A stretch of 24,000 nucleotides of DNA from Bacillota bacterium. GTDB taxonomy: Bacteria; Bacillota; Clostridia; Oscillospirales; Ruminococcaceae. The position numbers and the translations under genes were made by a program. Shown here one piece after another: positions 193 to 11,949 of this stretch. The notes under the pieces are model-generated. The model ran no database searches, was not told the origin of the DNA, and saw only the letters and a list, made by a program, of their open reading frames with translations. Location of the stretch: positions 156,202-180,201 of the forward strand of contig JAEWWT010000027.1 in NCBI GenBank assembly GCA_023396225.1, in the 5' to 3' direction. How positions within the stretch are numbered: position 1 is the first letter of the stretch; every line of letters starts with the position of its first letter.

Positions 193-221
193 TTGACACT
201 TTAGACGCATAATGATAAAAT
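193..221 (+). promoter_or_regulatory. Sigma-70-type promoter of surface-protein paralogue A
   Basis: TTGACA (193-198), a 17-nt spacer, and an extended -10 TGaTAAAAT (213-221). It lies about 110 nt upstream of the ATG at 334. Confidence 0.6.
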
Positions 222-333
222 AATAGCGTGATATACGGATGGATACATATTCCGTATATTCGTTATACGTGTTTCCAATATTATTGGAGATATATAGAAT
301 AAAAATAACAACAAAACAAGGAGGATTTTTTTC

Positions 334-2037
334 ATGAACATGAAAAAGACAATCGCTGCTCTTTCAGCAGCAGCAGTAGCTGTATCTGCAATGGCTACAA
401 CAGTATCAGCTGAAGAAGCTAAGCAGGGTTCATTTACATATGACCTCGTTAGAGAAACAAAGACAATCGAAGACGGTACTGCTACAATAACAACAATTGC
501 TTCAGGTCTTGACCTTACAGCTGCTACAGATCTTAAGATCACAATGAACAATGCTGATGTTAACAAGTATAAGGCTGGCGAGACAACTTACACAATTACT
601 GTTACAAAGCCAGGTACAACTCAGGTTTGGACAAAGGAAATCGGCAGCAAGAATGATAAGGCTAACTTCTCAACATGGATTACATTTGTTGGTGATAATG
701 CTATCGTTACAATCCCTGTTGCTACAGGTGCTACAACAGGCGGTATCGATAATGGTGCAGTTGCATTTGACTCAAACGTAAGAGTTCAGATCGTTGCTCA
801 AACAAAGCACGGCATCAAGGATGACTCACAGAAGAAGTTCAACGCTGCTGTTGCTGCTGGCACAATCAGCACAGAATTTGAAGCTATTTCAGCTGCTAAT
901 GCTGCTGAACTTGCTAAAATTAATGCTGATATCGCTACAGTAAGTGGTTGGGTTATTGGCACAGACGTTAATGGTGCTGCTCTTACAGCTACAGGTGCTC
1001 CTGATATTTCTGGTGTTGCTTTTGACGCTGTTACACAGGCTGATAAGACTGCAACACTTAATGCTCTTGCAGTTCTTAAGAATGCAATCCAGACAAAGGT
1101 TCAGCCACAGATCGCTTCAACAAACGCTGGCGAAAAGATTAACCTTTTCCCAATGATGACAACAGTTAACGGTATTGCTAGACCAAACGGAGTTGGTTCT
1201 GACTATGTTATCACAAATGCTGATGGCAAGCAGGTTCAGAATGATGAATATGACCTTATCACAGCTACACAGTCAAAGGTTTATGATGAATTTGACCTCA
1301 TTGACTACCTCGAACTCAACAGAGGCGACCTCAACGACAGAATTGGTAAGGTTGGCTACCACAATGTACTCCCAGTTCTTAACGACGTTATCGCTAACTA
1401 CGAAGATGTTACATTCACATTCACAACTTCTGCTCTCTATGTAAACATCGATTCAAGAGATAAGAACACAGCTTCTTATGTTAAGAAGGCTGATGATAAG
1501 CACTTTGGTGAAGGTTTCACAGAAAAGAAGGATGATTTCTGGTACAACCCATCATTCGGTCAGCACCTCTATGGTAAGGACTACTATGATGCTGAAGGTT
1601 CAGGATTTGTTGGAACACAGCAGAGCTGGGCATTCAACCTCTTCACAGGCGGTCTTACAGTAAACAACAAGTACACAATGTCACTCAACGATACTCAGGT
1701 ATTCGATTGGGGCGAAAATACACTCTCATTTGATTGGGATTCAGTATCAGATGGTAAGGTAACTAACGCTAGATACCTCCTCGAATACATGAACCTCTAC
1801 ACATCAACACCTTGGTTCTGGGATTCAATGACAGTTGCATTCTCAAATGCAGTTGAAATTGAAGATGCTGAATCTGGTGAAGGCGTTGAAGGCGAAGAAG
1901 AAATCGTTGAAGACGAAGCTCCAGTTGAAGACGAAGCTCCAGCTGAAAACCCAGCAACAGGTAATGCTTCAGTTGCACTTGCTGTTATCCCTGTAGCTCT
2001 TGCTGCAGCAGCAATCGTTGCTAAGAAGAGAAGCTAA
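334..2037 (+). CDS. Secreted cell-surface protein, paralogue A (567 aa), with a putative sortase-type NPATG C-terminal anchor
   Basis: AAGGAGG at 318-324 precedes the ATG. The signal peptide is MNMKKTIAALSAAAVAVSAMATTVSA|EE. The C-terminus has an acidic stalk (EDAESGEGVEGEEEIVEDEAPVEDEAPAE) followed by NPATGN, a hydrophobic helix and KKRS. Codon bias is strong (ACA/GCT/GTT/AAG), like rpsP. The passenger domain was not recognised. Confidence 0.9.
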   Translation: MNMKKTIAALSAAAVAVSAMATTVSAEEAKQGSFTYDLVRETKTIEDGTATITTIASGLDLTAATDLKITMNNADVNKYKAGETTYTITVTKPGTTQVWTKEIGSKNDKANFSTWITFVGDNAIVTIPVATGATTGGIDNGAVAFDSNVRVQIVAQTKHGIKDDSQKKFNAAVAAGTISTEFEAISAANAAELAKINADIATVSGWVIGTDVNGAALTATGAPDISGVAFDAVTQADKTATLNALAVLKNAIQTKVQPQIASTNAGEKINLFPMMTTVNGIARPNGVGSDYVITNADGKQVQNDEYDLITATQSKVYDEFDLIDYLELNRGDLNDRIGKVGYHNVLPVLNDVIANYEDVTFTFTTSALYVNIDSRDKNTASYVKKADDKHFGEGFTEKKDDFWYNPSFGQHLYGKDYYDAEGSGFVGTQQSWAFNLFTGGLTVNNKYTMSLNDTQVFDWGENTLSFDWDSVSDGKVTNARYLLEYMNLYTSTPWFWDSMTVAFSNAVEIEDAESGEGVEGEEEIVEDEAPVEDEAPAENPATGNASVALAVIPVALAAAAIVAKKRS

Positions 2038-5946: not shown

Positions 5947-6073
5947 AATTAACTCAACGAGGCTATAAGCATTACATATATAATTGAGAAAAAATAATAT
6001 TTGATTGCTTATATTATGGCCTGACTATCCATGTAAAGAAAAAAATTTGAAACAAAACAAGGAGGATTTTTTC

Positions 6074-7783
6074 ATGAACATGAAAAAAACACTTGCTGCT
6101 CTTTCAGCAGCAGCAGTAGCAGTATCTGCAATGGCTACAACAGTATCCGCTGAAACTGGATCATTTACATATGATCTTGTTAGAGAAACAAAAACTATTG
6201 AAGACGGTACAGCAACAATAACAACAGTAGCTTCAGGTCTTAACCTCACAGGTGCAACAAGTCTTAATGTTACAATGAACAATTCAGATGTTAACAAGTT
6301 TAAGGCTGGTGAAACAGTTTACACAATTACTGTTACACAGAATGGTACAAGCCAGGTTTGGACAAAGGAAATCAGCAGCAAGAGCGATGCAGCTAACTAC
6401 TCAACATGGATTTCAGTAACAGGCGACACAGCTGTAGTTACAATCCCATGTGCAGCTGGCGCTACAACAGGCGGTATCGATACAGCAGTATTTGATACAA
6501 ATGTAAGAGTTCAGATCGTTGCTGCTACTAAGCACGATGTTAAGGATGATTCACAGAAGAAATTTAACGCTGCTATCACTGCTGGCACAATCAGCACACA
6601 GTTCGAAGCTGTTTCAGCTGCTAACACTGCTGAACTTGCTTTGATTGATGCTGACATTGCTACAGTAAATGCAATGGTACTTGGCGCAGATGTAACTGGT
6701 ACAACACTTACAGCTACTGGTGCTCCTTCAACAGCTGGTATGACAGCTCTTACAGCTGATCAGAAGGCTTCATTAACTGCAGCTCTTACAGTTCTTAAGA
6801 ATGCAATCCAGGTTAATGTTGCTCCACAGATTGCTTCAACAAACGCTGGCGAAAAGGTACACCTCTTCCCAATGATGACAACTGTTAACGGTATTGCTAG
6901 ACCAGTTGTTTCAACAGGCCTCGTTTCAAACAATGCTGATGGAAAGAATGTTGCTAATGATTCATATGATCTCATTTCAAGCACATCTTCAACATCTACA
7001 CAGTTTGATCTTATTGATTACCTCGAGCTCAACAATGGCGATCTTAACGACAAGATTGGCAAGGTTGGATATAAGAATGTTCTTCCAGTTCTTAACGATG
7101 TTATTGCTAACTACGAAGATGTTACATTCACATTCACAACATCTGCTCTCTATGTAAACGTAGATTCAAGAGATAACAATACTGTTTCATACCTCAAGAA
7201 GGATGATGACAAGGCATTCGGTGAAGGCTTCTCAGAGAAGAAGGATGATTACTGGTACAACCCATCATTCGGTCAGCACCTCTATGGTAAGGACTACTAT
7301 GATGCTGAAGGCACAAACTATGTTGGAACAAACAACAATTGGGCATTCAACCTCTTCACAGGCGGTCTCACAATCAATAACAAGTACACAATGTCACTCA
7401 ACGATACTCAGGTATTTGATTGGGGCGAAAATACACTTTCATTTGATTGGGAATCAGTAACAGACGGTAAGGTAACTAATGCTACACAGCTTCTTGAATA
7501 CATGAACCTCTACACATCAACACCTTGGTTCTGGGATACAATGACTGTAGCTTTCAACGATGCTAATGCTGAAGATGCTGAATCAGGCGAAGGCGTAGAA
7601 GGCGAAGAAGAAGTTGTTGAAGAAGAAACAACAGCTGAAGAAGAAGTTCCAGCTGAAGAAGAAGCTCCAGTTGTTGACGATGCTACAGCTGAAAACCCAG
7701 CAACAGGAAACGCTTCAGTAGCACTCGCAGTTATCCCTGTAGCTCTCGCAGCAGCAGCAATCGTTGCTAAGAAGAGAGGCTAA
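6074..7783 (+). CDS. Secreted cell-surface protein, paralogue B (569 aa), with a putative sortase-type NPATG C-terminal anchor
   Basis: AAGGAGG at 6059-6065 precedes ATGAACATGAAAAA, as in paralogue A. The ORF-track TTG at 6005 is an upstream extension. The protein is roughly four-fifths identical to paralogue A by eye. The C-terminus has an acidic stalk, NPATGN, a hydrophobic helix and KKRG. Confidence 0.9.
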   Translation: MNMKKTLAALSAAAVAVSAMATTVSAETGSFTYDLVRETKTIEDGTATITTVASGLNLTGATSLNVTMNNSDVNKFKAGETVYTITVTQNGTSQVWTKEISSKSDAANYSTWISVTGDTAVVTIPCAAGATTGGIDTAVFDTNVRVQIVAATKHDVKDDSQKKFNAAITAGTISTQFEAVSAANTAELALIDADIATVNAMVLGADVTGTTLTATGAPSTAGMTALTADQKASLTAALTVLKNAIQVNVAPQIASTNAGEKVHLFPMMTTVNGIARPVVSTGLVSNNADGKNVANDSYDLISSTSSTSTQFDLIDYLELNNGDLNDKIGKVGYKNVLPVLNDVIANYEDVTFTFTTSALYVNVDSRDNNTVSYLKKDDDKAFGEGFSEKKDDYWYNPSFGQHLYGKDYYDAEGTNYVGTNNNWAFNLFTGGLTINNKYTMSLNDTQVFDWGENTLSFDWESVTDGKVTNATQLLEYMNLYTSTPWFWDTMTVAFNDANAEDAESGEGVEGEEEVVEEETTAEEEVPAEEEAPVVDDATAENPATGNASVALAVIPVALAAAAIVAKKRG

Positions 7784-7888: not shown

Positions 7889-8088
7889 TTATGTAATGAA
7901 AATTTCAAGTCTTAATACCTTTCTACATATACATAATAACGCAGAAATGGCAATTTGTTTTTAAACAATACTACAAATAAAAACCAATTTGTAACCAAAA
8001 TTTCACACAGTCAGTGAATTATTTTGAATTTTGTTTAAAATGTGCATTAGCAAGTGAAATATTTGTGCAAAATCTGTTATAATAATAG

Positions 8089-8117
8089 TTGTAGTGCAAA
8101 AATTAATGTGCTATAAT
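8089..8117 (+). promoter_or_regulatory. Extended -10 promoter of stalk-only gene 1
   Basis: TTGTAG (8089-8094), a 17-nt spacer, then TGcTATAAT (8109-8117). A second TGtTATAAT lies upstream at 8075-8083. Confidence 0.55.
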
Positions 8118-8166
8118 AATCGCATAGTAAAAAACTATAATATCATGTTTAATGGAGGAATTTATT

Positions 8167-8442
8167 ATGAAACTTAAGAAAATTCTTGCTGCTCTTGCAG
8201 CTTCTGCAATGGCTCTCACAATGTTTGGTATGATGGCATCTGCTGAAGGTGTTGAAGGCGAAGAAGAAATCGTTGATGAAACAACTGCTGAAGACGAAAC
8301 TCCTGCTGAAGATGAGGCAGAAGTAGCTCCTGCTGAAGATGAAGCTGCTGCAAACCCATCAACAGGTAATGCTTCAGTTGCACTTGCTGTTATCCCTGTA
8401 GCTCTTGCTGCAGCAGCAATCGTTGCTAAGAAGGCTAAGTAA
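8167..8442 (+). CDS. Stalk-only secreted acidic protein (91 aa): signal peptide, polyacidic linker, NPSTG sorting cassette
   Basis: GGAGG at 8154-8158 precedes the ATG at 8167. The signal peptide is MKLKKILAALAASAMALTMFGMMASA|EG. About 40 residues follow, of which 17 are D/E and none are basic. The C-terminus is NPSTGNASVALAVIPVALAAAAIVAKKAK. The tail nucleotides are almost identical to those of paralogue A. Confidence 0.8.
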   Translation: MKLKKILAALAASAMALTMFGMMASAEGVEGEEEIVDETTAEDETPAEDEAEVAPAEDEAAANPSTGNASVALAVIPVALAAAAIVAKKAK

Positions 8443-8462
8443 TTTTAAAAATTACGAATTTA

Positions 8463-8497
8463 ATAAGCCCACCTAAAATAAGGCGGGCTTATTTTTT
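8463..8497 (+). terminator. Rho-independent terminator
   Basis: ATAAGCCCACC pairs with GGCGGGCTTAT with one mismatch, followed by TTTTTT. Confidence 0.75.
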
Positions 8498-8759
8498 ACA
8501 TAATTAGCTTTGTTTAAAATATGATAAACGGTTCCATGCATATATTATATTGTATCATTTAATTACTTATCTGAAGCAATGCGGTTATAGTTAATTTTTT
8601 ACATTTTAATTATATATACAACATATTAAGTATAACTAAATTAGTTTGTTAGTTATAATTTTTACAATAAAACCACAAGATGGTATGACTTTGGATGATA
8701 ATTATATATTATGCTAAAAAAGTTATAAATTACATGATAATAATTATTGAAATTTAAGA

Positions 8760-8788
8760 TTGTATTAGTTGAAATTGAGTGATATAAT
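8760..8788 (+). promoter_or_regulatory. Extended -10 promoter of stalk-only gene 2
   Basis: TTGTAT (8760-8765), a 17-nt spacer, then TGaTATAAT (8780-8788). Confidence 0.55.
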
Positions 8789-8925
8789 GATTGAAGATTG
8801 GTGAGAGGTAGATAAAATCAATGCGCCTTCTTATCAACTTAAAATAAGATGATAATGGTTTGCGAATAGCTGACTATTACATAAATAGAGATATTAATTT
8901 TAAATTAAAACGGAGGACAATTACT

Positions 8926-9216
8926 ATGAAACTCAAGAAGATTATCGCAGCAGTTGCTGCACTCACTATGGCTGTATCAATGATGGCTGTATCTGCATCT
9001 GCAGATGACACAACAACAGCTGCTGCTGAAGAAACAACAGTTGCTGAAGAAGCTGCTGAAGAAGAAGTTGCTGCTGATGAAGAAGCTGCTCCTGCTGAAG
9101 AAGCTACAGATGCTGCTACAACAGAAGCTCCTGCTACAGGCAACACAGTTGCAGTAGTAGTTGCTGCTATGGCTGTTGCTGGTGCTGCAGTTGTTGCAAC
9201 AAGAAAGAGAAAGTAA
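8926..9216 (+). CDS. Stalk-only secreted acidic protein (96 aa): signal peptide, Ala/Glu/Thr-rich acidic linker, APATG sorting cassette
   Basis: GGAGG at 8912-8916 precedes the ATG at 8926. The signal peptide is MKLKKIIAAVAALTMAVSMMAVSASA|DD. About 45 residues follow, of which 16 are D/E and none are basic. The C-terminus is APATGNTVAVVVAAMAVAGAAVVATRKRK. Confidence 0.8.
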   Translation: MKLKKIIAAVAALTMAVSMMAVSASADDTTTAAAEETTVAEEAAEEEVAADEEAAPAEEATDAATTEAPATGNTVAVVVAAMAVAGAAVVATRKRK

Positions 9217-9238
9217 TTATTACTTTTAAAAGCTGAAG

Positions 9239-9269
9239 GAAGTCCGTCATTTATGGCGGACTTTTTTTG
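9239..9269 (+). terminator. Rho-independent terminator
   Basis: AAGTCCGTCAT pairs with ATGGCGGACTT (one G-U pair), followed by a T7 run. Confidence 0.8.
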
Positions 9270-9425
9270 TGCATTTTGAAATAATGATTGACAGTTTATA
9301 AAGTATCTATTTCTTGTATTAAATATGTTAAATCAAATTTTAATAATTTCTCAAAAAATCTATTATTTATGTATACATGTATGTTGTAAAATATAATAAA
9401 GAAAACTATGGAAAGAGGGCTGCGT

Positions 9426-11093: not shown

Positions 11094-11115
11094 GGTATAT
11101 TTTCATACATTTTGG

Positions 11116-11144
11116 TTGACAATAAAAATAATGTGTATTATAAT
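11116..11144 (+). promoter_or_regulatory. Consensus sigma-70 promoter of the NTase/HEPN pair
   Basis: TTGACA (11116-11121), exactly 17 nt, then TATAAT (11139-11144). This places the ORF-track TTG start at 11112 inside the promoter. Confidence 0.7.
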
Positions 11145-11213
11145 ATAAAAAAACAAATGTGTTTTAATGCGTCGGAAAGGGGACATGCTTCTAAAAGAGG
11201 CATAAATACTGCT

Positions 11214-11525
11214 ATGGAAAATAATCCTATAATCAGACAAATGGCAGATGATATTATTAAAATCTGCTCACCGTTTCAAATTTTTCTTGTTTCTAGCAAA
11301 ACAGATAAAAAGGGTGAACTTACATCTTTCAAGCTGTGTATTATCGTTGCAGACAGTTATACACCTTCTGTTCTTGAAACGGACATTCTTGTAAATACTG
11401 ATTGTCCTGTTCCTTGTGATATTCTGGTATACAATGTCACTGAATGGAATGATATTGTTCAGGATGACTGCTCCTTTGCATATAAGGTAGATAATGCGGG
11501 GGTACTTATTTATGAGCAGAGCTAA
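11214..11525 (+). CDS. Minimal nucleotidyltransferase (MNT)-like protein with degenerate catalytic motifs
   Basis: The C-terminal 'DILVYNVTEWNDIVQDDCSFAYKVDNAGVLIYE' is typical of MNT partners of HEPN proteins. Where GS...DxD is expected it reads 'LVSSKTDKKGELTSFKLCIIV'. The gene overlaps the next gene. Confidence 0.55.
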   Translation: MENNPIIRQMADDIIKICSPFQIFLVSSKTDKKGELTSFKLCIIVADSYTPSVLETDILVNTDCPVPCDILVYNVTEWNDIVQDDCSFAYKVDNAGVLIYEQS

Positions 11526-11949
11526 TCATAACACCGACAGTAAAAGATATTATGACTGGATATTCCATGCGTATCAAGACAGGCTTGCTGCGCAGGTACT
11601 TATGGACGATGAAAGGTTGTACAGCGTTGCAGCTTTCCATTGTCAGCAATGCATAGAAAAAGGTCTGAAGGGCTTTCTGCTGTTTAAGAACAGGAAGCAA
11701 TTCGACGGACATAACCTTACATGGCTTTGCAAACAGGCATCGCTTATGGATCAGAGCTTTACAAAGTGGATTACCAAGAGTGCACTTCTCAACAGGTACT
11801 ACATTGAAACAAGATACCCTGCTGACATCCCGATGGATATTGACAAGGAAACCATTGATGATGTTATGGAAGCCACTACAGAAATGCTTGACTTTATCTG
11901 TGAGCTTATAAAGTTTGATATTAATAGTTATCATAAGAAAAAGAGATAA
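11512..11949 (+). CDS. HEPN domain protein
   Basis: 'AAFHCQQCIEKGLKGFL', 'NRKQFDGHNLTWL' (Rx5H) and 'IETRYPAD' fit the HEPN pattern. The start overlaps the stop of the NTase-like gene (alternative ATG at 11494). Confidence 0.65.
   Translation: MSRANHNTDSKRYYDWIFHAYQDRLAAQVLMDDERLYSVAAFHCQQCIEKGLKGFLLFKNRKQFDGHNLTWLCKQASLMDQSFTKWITKSALLNRYYIETRYPADIPMDIDKETIDDVMEATTEMLDFICELIKFDINSYHKKKR

Follow-up and report, generated by a model that had tools for sequence, protein, structure and literature searches.

Two small stalk-only genes of a Bacillota chromosome and a widespread family of putative wall-anchored polyacidic peptides

Results

Architecture and expression signals of the small genes

The window analysed here is a stretch of 24,000 nucleotides (nt) of contig JAEWWT010000027.1. 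It belongs to a low-GC Bacillota chromosome and carries SpoVAC, a PP2C phosphatase, GH9, ffh, rpsP, rimM, trmD and ftsEX. In the gene order big1, big2, small1, small2, GH9, the two large genes encode paralogous surface proteins, while small1 and small2 encode proteins of 91 and 96 amino acids (aa) and are the subject of this study. A first-pass annotation had described both small products as a signal peptide, an acidic segment and a sorting tail with no passenger domain, and this is exactly what we find. The product of small1 divides into 26, 40 and 25 aa and that of small2 into 26, 45 and 25 aa, with no residue left over in either. Here, the linker is counted through the Thr of the sorting motif and the tail begins at the G of the motif. 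The numbers of acidic residues and the absence of K, R and H from both linkers also agree with the annotation (Table 1).

Both N-termini combine an MKLKK n-region and a hydrophobic core with the sequence ASA, after which cleavage is predicted behind residue 26. The motifs NPSTG (small1) and APATG (small2) each begin 29 residues before the C-terminus, which consists of a hydrophobic stretch followed by basic residues (ASVALAVIPVALAAAAIVA then KKAK in small1, TVAVVVAAMAVAGAAVVAT then RKRK in small2). The linker of small1 opens with EGVEGEEEIVDE, referred to below as the stalk-start motif, and closes with NPST. An AlphaFold2 (AF2) model of small1, built with 71 homologues, exhibits one helix at either end and coil in between; judged from this model, small1 is without a hidden folded domain.

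Each gene was claimed to have its own extended -10 promoter, a GGAGG Shine-Dalgarno (SD) sequence, a strong terminator and codon usage of the highly expressed type, and all of these could be located. The promoter of small1 is a tandem, with a second extended -10 element, TGTTATAAT, at 8075..8083. On the + strand of the window the pattern TGnTATAAT occurs at five sites in all, three of which lie upstream of small1 or small2. Upstream of small1-type genes from six genomes with differing upstream neighbours, TGnTATAAT together with the TTG of the -35 element is invariant, and so is the SD sequence GGAGGAA. The terminator of small2 shows a compensatory stem change in the sister species L003 (GTCCGTC..GGCGGAC versus GCCCGTC..GGCGGGC). 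Both small genes share their codon bias with rpsP and the large paralogues, and differ in this respect from GH9, ffh, trmD and ftsEX. Ala is encoded by GCT and GCA only and Val by GTT and GTA only, GAA and GAG stand at 12:1 and 12:0 in the two genes, and AAG is preferred over AAA. Going by these signals, small1 and small2 are real genes, each with transcription signals of its own, and probably highly expressed.

An in-frame ATG at 8152 is unlikely as the start of small1, as it sits within the SD sequence. This region (8152..8166) has the sequence ATGGAGGAA, which reads in frame as MEEFIM..., and longer upstream ORFs (open reading frames) exist as well. Because of such in-frame upstream ATGs and longer ORFs, the family gene is recorded as 90, 96 or 132 aa (P0003, P0066, P0118), and these alternative start calls leave the family scattered across databases. 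Further ORFs overlap the small genes, 8216..8383 (-) and 8877..9146 (-), and the 5' ends of the large genes, 201..566 (-) and 6025..6297 (-). These antisense or out-of-frame ORFs are by-products of a coding sequence rich in GCT, GAA and ACA and not genes.

In a comparison of the small-gene leaders and terminators with Rfam, no match came near any gathering score. The small2 leader (8789..8925) is 88% conserved with L003 and likewise matches no Rfam family. A short inverted repeat, ATAGT-N5-ACTAT (8124..8138), is located close to where the small1 mRNA is predicted to begin; it also occurs in L003, L027 and L028, and in part in L031. It might form a stabilising 5' hairpin, though its stem is weak.

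Table 1. Coordinates of the large and small genes in the window and of their signals and protein segments (L003, sister species; L031, locus of a further type-A gene; types A and B, the two tail classes described in the text).
Feature	Position	Strand	Remarks
big1 coding sequence	334..2037	+	C-terminal stalk and type-A tail module 1872..2037, 89-95% nt identity to small1
big2 coding sequence	6074..7783	+	C-terminal stalk and type-A tail module 7589..7783, 80% nt identity to small1
small1 tandem extended -10 promoters	8054..8117	+	(TGT)TATAAT ending 8083; TTGTAG-N17-(TGC)TATAAT 8089..8117
small1 SD GGAGG	8154..8158	+	8 nt before ATG
small1 coding sequence	8167..8442	+	91 aa
small1 signal peptide	8167..8244	+	26 aa (MKLKKILAALAASAMALTMFGMMASA, predicted cleavage between ASA and EG); AF2 helix 2-25
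small1 polyacidic linker	8245..8364	+	40 aa, 17 D/E, 0 K/R/H; AF2 coil
small1 sorting pentapeptide NPSTG	8353..8367	+	predicted cleavage between T and G; family motif [N/S]PxTGN
small1 type-A tail and stop codon	8365..8442	+	GNASVALAVIPVALAAAAIVAKKAK; AF2 helix 69-90; near-invariant in family
small1 intrinsic terminator	8462..8499	+	-17.2 kcal/mol, z = -4.8; conserved in L003
small2 extended -10 promoter	8760..8788	+	TTGTAT-N17-(TGA)TATAAT; leader of ~135 nt follows
small2 SD GGAGG	8912..8916	+	9 nt before ATG
small2 coding sequence	8926..9216	+	96 aa
small2 signal peptide	8926..9003	+	26 aa (MKLKKIIAAVAALTMAVSMMAVSASA, predicted cleavage between ASA and DD); 12 N-terminal residues as in type-B gene of L031
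small2 T/A/E-rich linker	9004..9138	+	45 aa, 16 D/E, 9 T, 16 A, 0 K/R/H; ends APAT
small2 type-B tail and stop codon	9139..9216	+	GNTVAVVVAAMAVAGAAVVATRKRK; Rumino_NPXTG 23.4 bits, cut-off 23.5
small2 intrinsic terminator	9232..9272	+	-21.4 kcal/mol, z = -5.5

Conservation in a sister species

Two loci recovered from metagenomes, L001 and L002, belong to the window organism itself. L003 is a metagenome-assembled genome (MAG) whose GH9 protein is 93% identical to that of the window, and it shows the same order of big1, big2, small1, small2 and GH9. Between the window and L003, the coding sequences share 92.1% nt identity for small1 (indels of 6 and 9 nt), 95.9% for small2 (63, 9 and 6 nt), 90.7% for GH9 (no indels) and 91.9% for big2 (one indel of 3 nt). 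The promoter and leader of small1 (8000..8166) are 94% identical, with two indels of 1 nt each. Those of small2 are 88% identical, again with two 1-nt indels, compared to 65% in the DNA just upstream, and other intergenic DNA reaches 65-71%, with indels of 1, 5, 10, 11 and 169 nt. All indels within the two small coding sequences are multiples of three. The small2 orthologue is 26 aa longer, which is due to in-frame insertions of T/A-rich repeats. Both orthologues are intact in L003 and without frameshifts, so that the refuting case named in the first-pass annotation, frameshifted pseudogene debris in relatives, does not apply.

Of the loci found with GH9 as an anchor, only L003 has kept the small genes. 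At 22 loci whose GH9 is 46-51% identical to that of the window, no ORFs resembling small1 or small2 were detected, even by a loose scan. Linkage of the small genes with GH9 is thus specific to this lineage. One contig labelled 'Prevotella sp.' (L026, JAMPIC010000001.1, 391 kb) encodes an Oscillospiraceae-type GH9 that is 49% identical to that of the window, and the stalk-only protein P0014 is recorded under the same label. The label of this MAG is probably wrong.

The type-A stalk-only family

An exact look-up of the small1 protein returned no database record, though L001 carries an identical gene. A metagenome scan with a four-sequence alignment confirmed at least one locus, the other matches being generic signal-peptide patterns. 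This locus (L027, from an organism of about 46% GC) carries a gene of 103 aa with a small1-type signal peptide and tail and a D-rich linker. A search of 5.8 billion sequences with a five-sequence profile gave 214 matches, of which the best 120 are all 87-136 aa long, and other small proteins were matched down to E = 1e-34. Since small1 itself is part of the profile, its own match to the family is circular; the independent matches are not. Finally, hmmsearch was run exhaustively against 1.84 billion cluster representatives and yielded 484 matches at E <= 1e-3.

We define a type-A protein by a KKIL-type signal peptide, a D/E-rich linker free of K, R and H, the motif [N/S]PxTGN, and a tail xxxALAV[IV]PVALAAAAxVAKK that ends KKAK-like, in a total of 87-136 aa. 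All of these features are present in small1, whereas small2 is excluded by its type-B tail. The linkers of the family have a median length of 46 aa (range 32-79), a D+E content of 45% and a median net charge of -21; among 5642 linker residues there are 12 K and neither R nor H. The motif [N/S]PxTGN is found in 111 of 124 small proteins, its T, G and N being invariant. Hardly any variation is seen in the tail, xPxALAVIPVALAAAAxVAKKAK, and the signal peptide likewise is nearly invariant. Over the 28 tail codons, distant genomes differ by 7-14 synonymous and 1-6 non-synonymous exchanges. The differences are thus mainly synonymous, which indicates that selection acts on the peptide. Looking for further small stalk-only ORFs, as recommended in the first-pass annotation, brought up over 120 proteins of small1 type (87-136 aa), whose tail is under purifying selection.

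The members come from MAGs of Oscillospiraceae and Ruminococcus, and every named one is annotated as 'hypothetical'. One of them, P0054, has index entries in 157 different blocks of the collection searched. When 71 type-A members were compared with Pfam and NCBIfam, none reached any cut-off, and the best NCBIfam matches below cut-off were Rumino_NPXTG, LPXTG_anchor and EF0750_LPXTG. By its sequence, small1 represents in the window a conserved and widespread, but unannotated, Oscillospiraceae family. The family is small enough for gene callers to miss or mis-start. Oscillospiraceae and relatives of Ruminococcus are abundant fibre degraders of gut and rumen with poorly known cell surfaces.

The genomic surroundings of type-A genes vary. 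At four loci (L027, 6501..10278; L028, 10502..13962; L031, 10568..14039; L032, 6352..9840) the gene heads a block with four genes for secreted proteins of 213-324 aa, each of which has a T/A/D/E linker and a type-B xxTGN anchor and no Pfam match. This five-gene block stands in differing surroundings; in L028 it follows the ribosomal protein/rpoA operon, in L031 a gene for a tRNA synthetase. A third context is seen in L033 and L037, two related strains from JGI sample 3300042599, where the small gene lies between the gene of a 727-aa protein with weak DUF4901 and faint SLH matches and a PfkB kinase gene.

Relation to the large surface proteins

From position 8245 onward, small1 is homologous to the stalks of big1 and big2, whose products (567 and 569 aa) are 79% identical to each other. 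Among the top 150 of the 484 hmmsearch representatives, about 35 are small full-length matches and about 115 are proteins of 400-1129 aa that align to the profile only over the signal peptide and the C-terminal stalk and tail. All large sequences examined are homologues of big1 and big2. They share the signal peptide MNMKKTIAA...TTVSA, vary in their N-terminal part and have in common a conserved C-terminal domain with the end ...ATS.WYWDSM. The stalk-start motif, (A/E)G(V/L/I)(E/D)(G/A)(D/E)(G/D/E)(D/E)x(L/I)(D/E)(D/E), follows this domain after exactly 18 residues in 116 of 130 large proteins. In the small proteins it starts right where the signal peptide would be cleaved off, so that a small protein is precisely a signal peptide plus a stalk module. 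The stalk and tail module is, as deduced from these alignments, the C-terminal wall attachment of the large surface-protein family that includes big1 and big2. In other genomes, no small gene was found adjoining the large paralogues.

The two groups differ at both ends. The signal peptide is of KKIL type in the small and of KKTIAA type in the large proteins; the C-terminal end is KKAK-like in about 110 of 124 small proteins, but KKR[GSKN] or KKKN in 197 of 197 large ones. By these signatures, small1 is related to the large paralogues as a separate lineage and is not a recent fragment of them.

Nevertheless, the stalks of both groups match. A complex 7-mer is shared with some large stalk by 106 of 124 small linkers, compared to 4.6% of small-small pairs, and the best small-large pairs are colinear across the entire stalk. 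Small and large proteins can be assigned to one genome with certainty in the window and in L003, as each pair lies on one contig there, and a further pair (P0113 and P0316) comes from one metagenome sample. This within-lineage match suggests either gene conversion or shared selection, as well as a concerted evolution of stalk-only and full-length surface-protein genes within a genome. Compared with big1 (1960..2034), the tail codons of small1 (8365..8439) are identical save for three non-synonymous changes, with no synonymous change in 28 codons, while seven synonymous differences separate them from big2 (7706..7780). This suggests a recent gene conversion between small1 and big1.

In the AF2 model of big2, residues 499-545 have a predicted local distance difference test score (pLDDT) of 31-35, followed by a helix at 556-567. 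A confident N-terminal beta-sandwich is modelled for a large paralogue at residues 28-190. This fold has no sequence match in the PDB and no Foldseek match below E = 1e-3, the only likeness being a weak one to beta-sandwiches of Gram-positive pilins and adhesins. The large paralogues have no match in Pfam.

small2 and the type-B tail class

The first-pass annotation described small1 and small2 together. Their passenger-less layout is indeed common to both, but the two genes are not equivalent: small2 has a tail of another class and a T/A/E-rich linker that is less acidic than that of small1, and is known from one lineage. It was seen only in the window organism (window, L001 and L002) and in L003, and a single-sequence search with small2, which is of low complexity and absent from the clustered database, returned nothing at E <= 0.01. 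Its tail, TGN-TVAVVVAAMAVAGAAVVATRKRK, represents a second class, type B. Tails of this type end the four clustered secreted proteins of 213-324 aa directly downstream of the type-A gene in L027, L028, L031 and L032, and small2 occupies in the window the position that these proteins have in the other genomes. In its first 12 residues, small2 does not differ from the signal peptide encoded by a type-B gene of the L031 cluster. The alignment extends over the signal peptide, the T/A/E linker and the tail of type-B proteins, while their domain is missing. From these alignments, small2 looks like a younger, lineage-specific and passenger-less derivative of a type-B protein.

It is at this point that the small genes have to be weighed against mere debris, i.e., remnants of the large paralogues that arose by deletion and are decaying, or ORFs that occur by chance in DNA of low complexity. 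That the stalk and tail of small1 share 80-95% nt identity with the 3' ends of big1 and big2 would fit such an origin, as would the resemblance of small2 to a type-B gene minus its domain and its empty database search. However, reading frames have been kept between species with indels of 3n only, promoters and terminators are conserved as well, the tail is under purifying selection, and the codon bias is that of a ribosomal protein gene. In addition, more than 120 small homologues share a distinctive signal peptide and a KKAK end that the large family lacks. We regard debris as a scarcely credible explanation overall, and for small1 it is already contradicted. The view of the first-pass annotation that these are not dead fragments thus stands, on the in-frame conservation in L003 and, for small1, on its membership in a large family.

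Discussion

Sorting signal and proposed pathway

Clostridial sortase substrates are recognized by four features; besides the signal peptide, these are a sorting motif that lies 17-45 aa before the C-terminus, a transmembrane (TM) helix and at least two basic residues. All four sequence features that define sortase substrates in PMC4155245 are present in small1 and small2. SPKTG and SPQTG, which are cleaved in vitro by SrtB of C. difficile (PMC4155245), also occur as motif variants among type-A family members.

Following established sortase biology, small1 and small2 would be exported via Sec, and signal peptidase I would cut after ASA. The C-terminal TM helix and the basic tail would then hold the protein in the membrane until a clostridial-type sortase cuts between T and G in NPSTG or APATG and moves the peptide onto the peptidoglycan, where it would be fixed by its C-terminal Thr. 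The mature products would be intrinsically disordered anionic peptides of 40 and 45 residues, free of K, R and H, with net charges of about -17 and -16. This agrees with the short polyanionic peptide predicted in the first-pass annotation. As there is no K or R and almost no aromatic residue, the peptides would presumably resist trypsin- and chymotrypsin-like gut proteases. In or on the wall, they may build up a polyanionic layer that resists proteases and sets surface charge and cation binding; alternatively, they may fill anchoring sites between the large stalked proteins. On balance, we lean towards small1 and small2 being sortase-anchored, passenger-less polyanionic stalk peptides that would act, in the most parsimonious view of their role, as a charge layer or filler.

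Several points weigh against this proposal. Every curated anchor model stays below its cut-off: small2 scores 15.2 against 20 with PF00746, 15.5 against 15.9 with TIGR01167 and 23.4 against 23.5 with NF033846, small1 scores 13.1 against 23.5 with the latter, and the anchor models match just 10 to 15 of 71 type-A members even at E <= 1. No sortase (PF04203) was found in the window or in the Pfam-annotated neighbourhoods, of which about 20 kb per genome were read. If the signal is simply cut off and discarded, it is unusual that the N after TG is invariant and that the TM helix, which contains Pro, is nearly so; this could indicate that a different enzyme does the processing or that there is a partner in the membrane. 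The co-evolution of the stalks rests on firm genome pairing in the window/L003 lineage only. The linker of small2 has just 36% D/E, and its orthologue has grown by T/A-rich repeats, so that the term polyanion fits it less well. The roles suggested in the first-pass annotation, i.e., a charge coat, spacers or competitor substrates of the sorting enzyme, may be regarded as plausible. Sorting of the exosortase, archaeosortase or rhombosortase type was considered as well: small1 has no such NCBIfam model, and small2 matches only models of ArtA-dependent S-layer glycoproteins, with 4-12 bits against cut-offs of 400-1100.

The anchor scores, the fact that no sortase gene was seen in the neighbourhoods read, and a TM helix conserved far beyond the need of a disposable sorting signal would also suit proteins that are not processed by a sortase at all, but stay in the membrane as C-terminally anchored bitopic peptides whose acidic ectodomain lies where membrane and wall meet. 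Some predicted sortase substrates of C. difficile are found in other cell locations (PMC5569036). We consider membrane retention quite unlikely, since xPxTG and the TM helix keep a fixed distance from each other in over 300 proteins, among them large surface proteins for which wall anchoring is the obvious interpretation, the T, G and N of the motif are invariant, and SPKTG and SPQTG are experimentally cleaved motifs (PMC4155245).

Selection on the linker and possible roles

In type-A proteins the signal peptide and the tail are near-invariant, while the mature part is constrained in composition alone, and expression signals are strong. This could mean that the cleaved conserved parts are the actual product, e.g., a membrane signal, or that the protein is a high-flux competitor or regulator of the sortase, with the linker as a mere spacer. 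Enterococcal pheromones come from signal peptides, and sensing of cleaved LPXTG C-peptides has reportedly been observed in Streptococcus gordonii. Yet the tail is conserved to an equal degree in the large family, which also has a conserved signal peptide of its own, so that this conservation looks like a trait of the targeting pathway and not of the small gene. Furthermore, the strict exclusion of K, R and H and the D+E content of 45% in every lineage indicate selection on the linker. A role of the cleaved parts is, in our judgement, very unlikely.

If the small proteins are wall-anchored polyanionic peptides as proposed, strong expression is spent on fixing a bare peptide to the wall. This would bear on surface charge, on cation economy, including that of Ca2+-dependent cohesin-dockerin systems, on resistance to host proteases, on interactions with phages and antimicrobial peptides, and on the sharing of sortase capacity. 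A stalk-only protein would also represent a clean, natural minimal substrate for clostridial-type sortases. A bolder version, which we put forward as a doubtful idea, sees in these genes a dedicated and highly expressed ribosomal wall-polyanion system of Oscillospiraceae. With specialised type-A sorting, and with a stalk peptide that conversion would keep matched to the stalks of the major surface proteins, it would be a protein-based equivalent of wall teichoic acids for charge, Ca2+/Mg2+ loading and spacing of the surface layer, and small2 would mark a second origin from type B.

At 11112..11949, apart from the genes discussed here, the window holds two overlapping small genes that resemble a nucleotidyltransferase/HEPN toxin-antitoxin pair, the second product carrying PF05168 HEPN.

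Comparison with known systems

The first-pass annotation knew of no described function for anchor substrates without a passenger. This has to be corrected, as CscD proteins have the same architecture: they are 90-140 aa long, with 40-60 residues between signal peptide and LPxTG, and a role as wall anchor for other proteins was proposed (Siezen 2006, PMC1534035; PMC2530867). The enterococcal EF0750/EF2685 loci belong to WxL clusters like csc (PMC2530867), and NCBIfam models this family as NF053819. Our small proteins fall under the same length criteria (91 and 96 aa, with linkers of 40 and 45). In both systems there is no recognisable domain, only a short peptide would reach the peptidoglycan, and divergence of the linker renders alignments uninformative. 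NF053819 is the second-best NCBIfam match of both small proteins, with 20.8 bits for small2 and 12.7 bits for small1, where the cut-off is 47; in 71 type-A members, E-values are no better than 4.7e-5.

The differences concern context and composition. CscD genes reside in csc operons together with CscA (DUF916) and the WxL proteins CscB and CscC, whereas the small genes are monocistronic, and neither DUF916 nor WxL was found among the neighbours in window/L001 and L028-L033. The type-A motif is [N/S]PxTGN instead of LPxTG, and the linker is strictly polyacidic and free of K, R and H, unlike that of CscD. In addition, the type-A stalk and tail are common to a large surface-protein family and match its stalks, for which CscD offers no counterpart. 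CscD and EF0750 occur in Lactobacillales, Listeria and Bacillus, the proteins described here in Clostridia, i.e., in Oscillospiraceae.

By analogy with CscD, the small proteins might serve as a wall-anchored docking platform, where the stalk or its N-terminal motif binds surface proteins either non-covalently or by cation bridges. Besides the equal architecture and the proposed docking role of CscD-type proteins (PMC1534035), such a function would be in agreement with a stalk-start motif that both protein groups conserve in an otherwise hypervariable stalk, and with a small gene that heads a cluster of four surface-protein genes at four loci. But the clustered proteins bring their own anchor signals and have no need of a separate one, no WxL or DUF916-type partner lies nearby, and the small gene is flanked by a promoter and a terminator of its own. 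Moreover, the four-gene cluster is absent from the window lineage, and hypervariable linkers suit a composition-based role better. We therefore hold docking to be unlikely.

The clostridial (S/P)PxTG substrates, such as those of C. difficile SrtB (PMC4155245, PMC4591827), carry the same tripartite signal, 17-45 aa from the C-terminus. They possess enzymatic or adhesive passenger domains, which small1 and small2 lack, and the N after TG that is invariant in the type-A family is not a feature of theirs; the cognate sortase of the small proteins was not located. With NF033846, 'Rumino_NPXTG', small2 stays 0.1 bit under the cut-off and small1 reaches just 13.1 bits.

An analogy, and no more than that, exists to the procyclins (PARP, PF05887) of Trypanosoma brucei, which consist of a signal peptide, acidic EP/GPEET repeats and a C-terminal hydrophobic signal that is exchanged by a transamidase. 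Their product is a polyanionic, protease-resistant surface coat, as proposed here for the stalk peptides. PF05887 is the sole Pfam match of small1 (15.2 bits against a gathering score of 100, E = 0.021), which reflects composition only, and it is also precomputed for the type-A members P0040 and P0115. Procyclins are eukaryotic and anchored by glycosylphosphatidylinositol to lipid instead of peptidoglycan, and share no common ancestry with small1. Polyanions in covalent linkage to the wall are also known as wall teichoic acids and poly-gamma-glutamate, which bind cations and determine the surface charge; a functional analogy to them is hypothetical. Unlike the stalk peptides, they are non-ribosomal, with unrelated biosynthesis and linkage. 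Taken together, the passenger-less architecture of a sortase substrate is already described for CscD and EF0750, and what the present analysis adds is an abundant, overlooked polyacidic type-A family and the matching of its stalks with those of large surface proteins.

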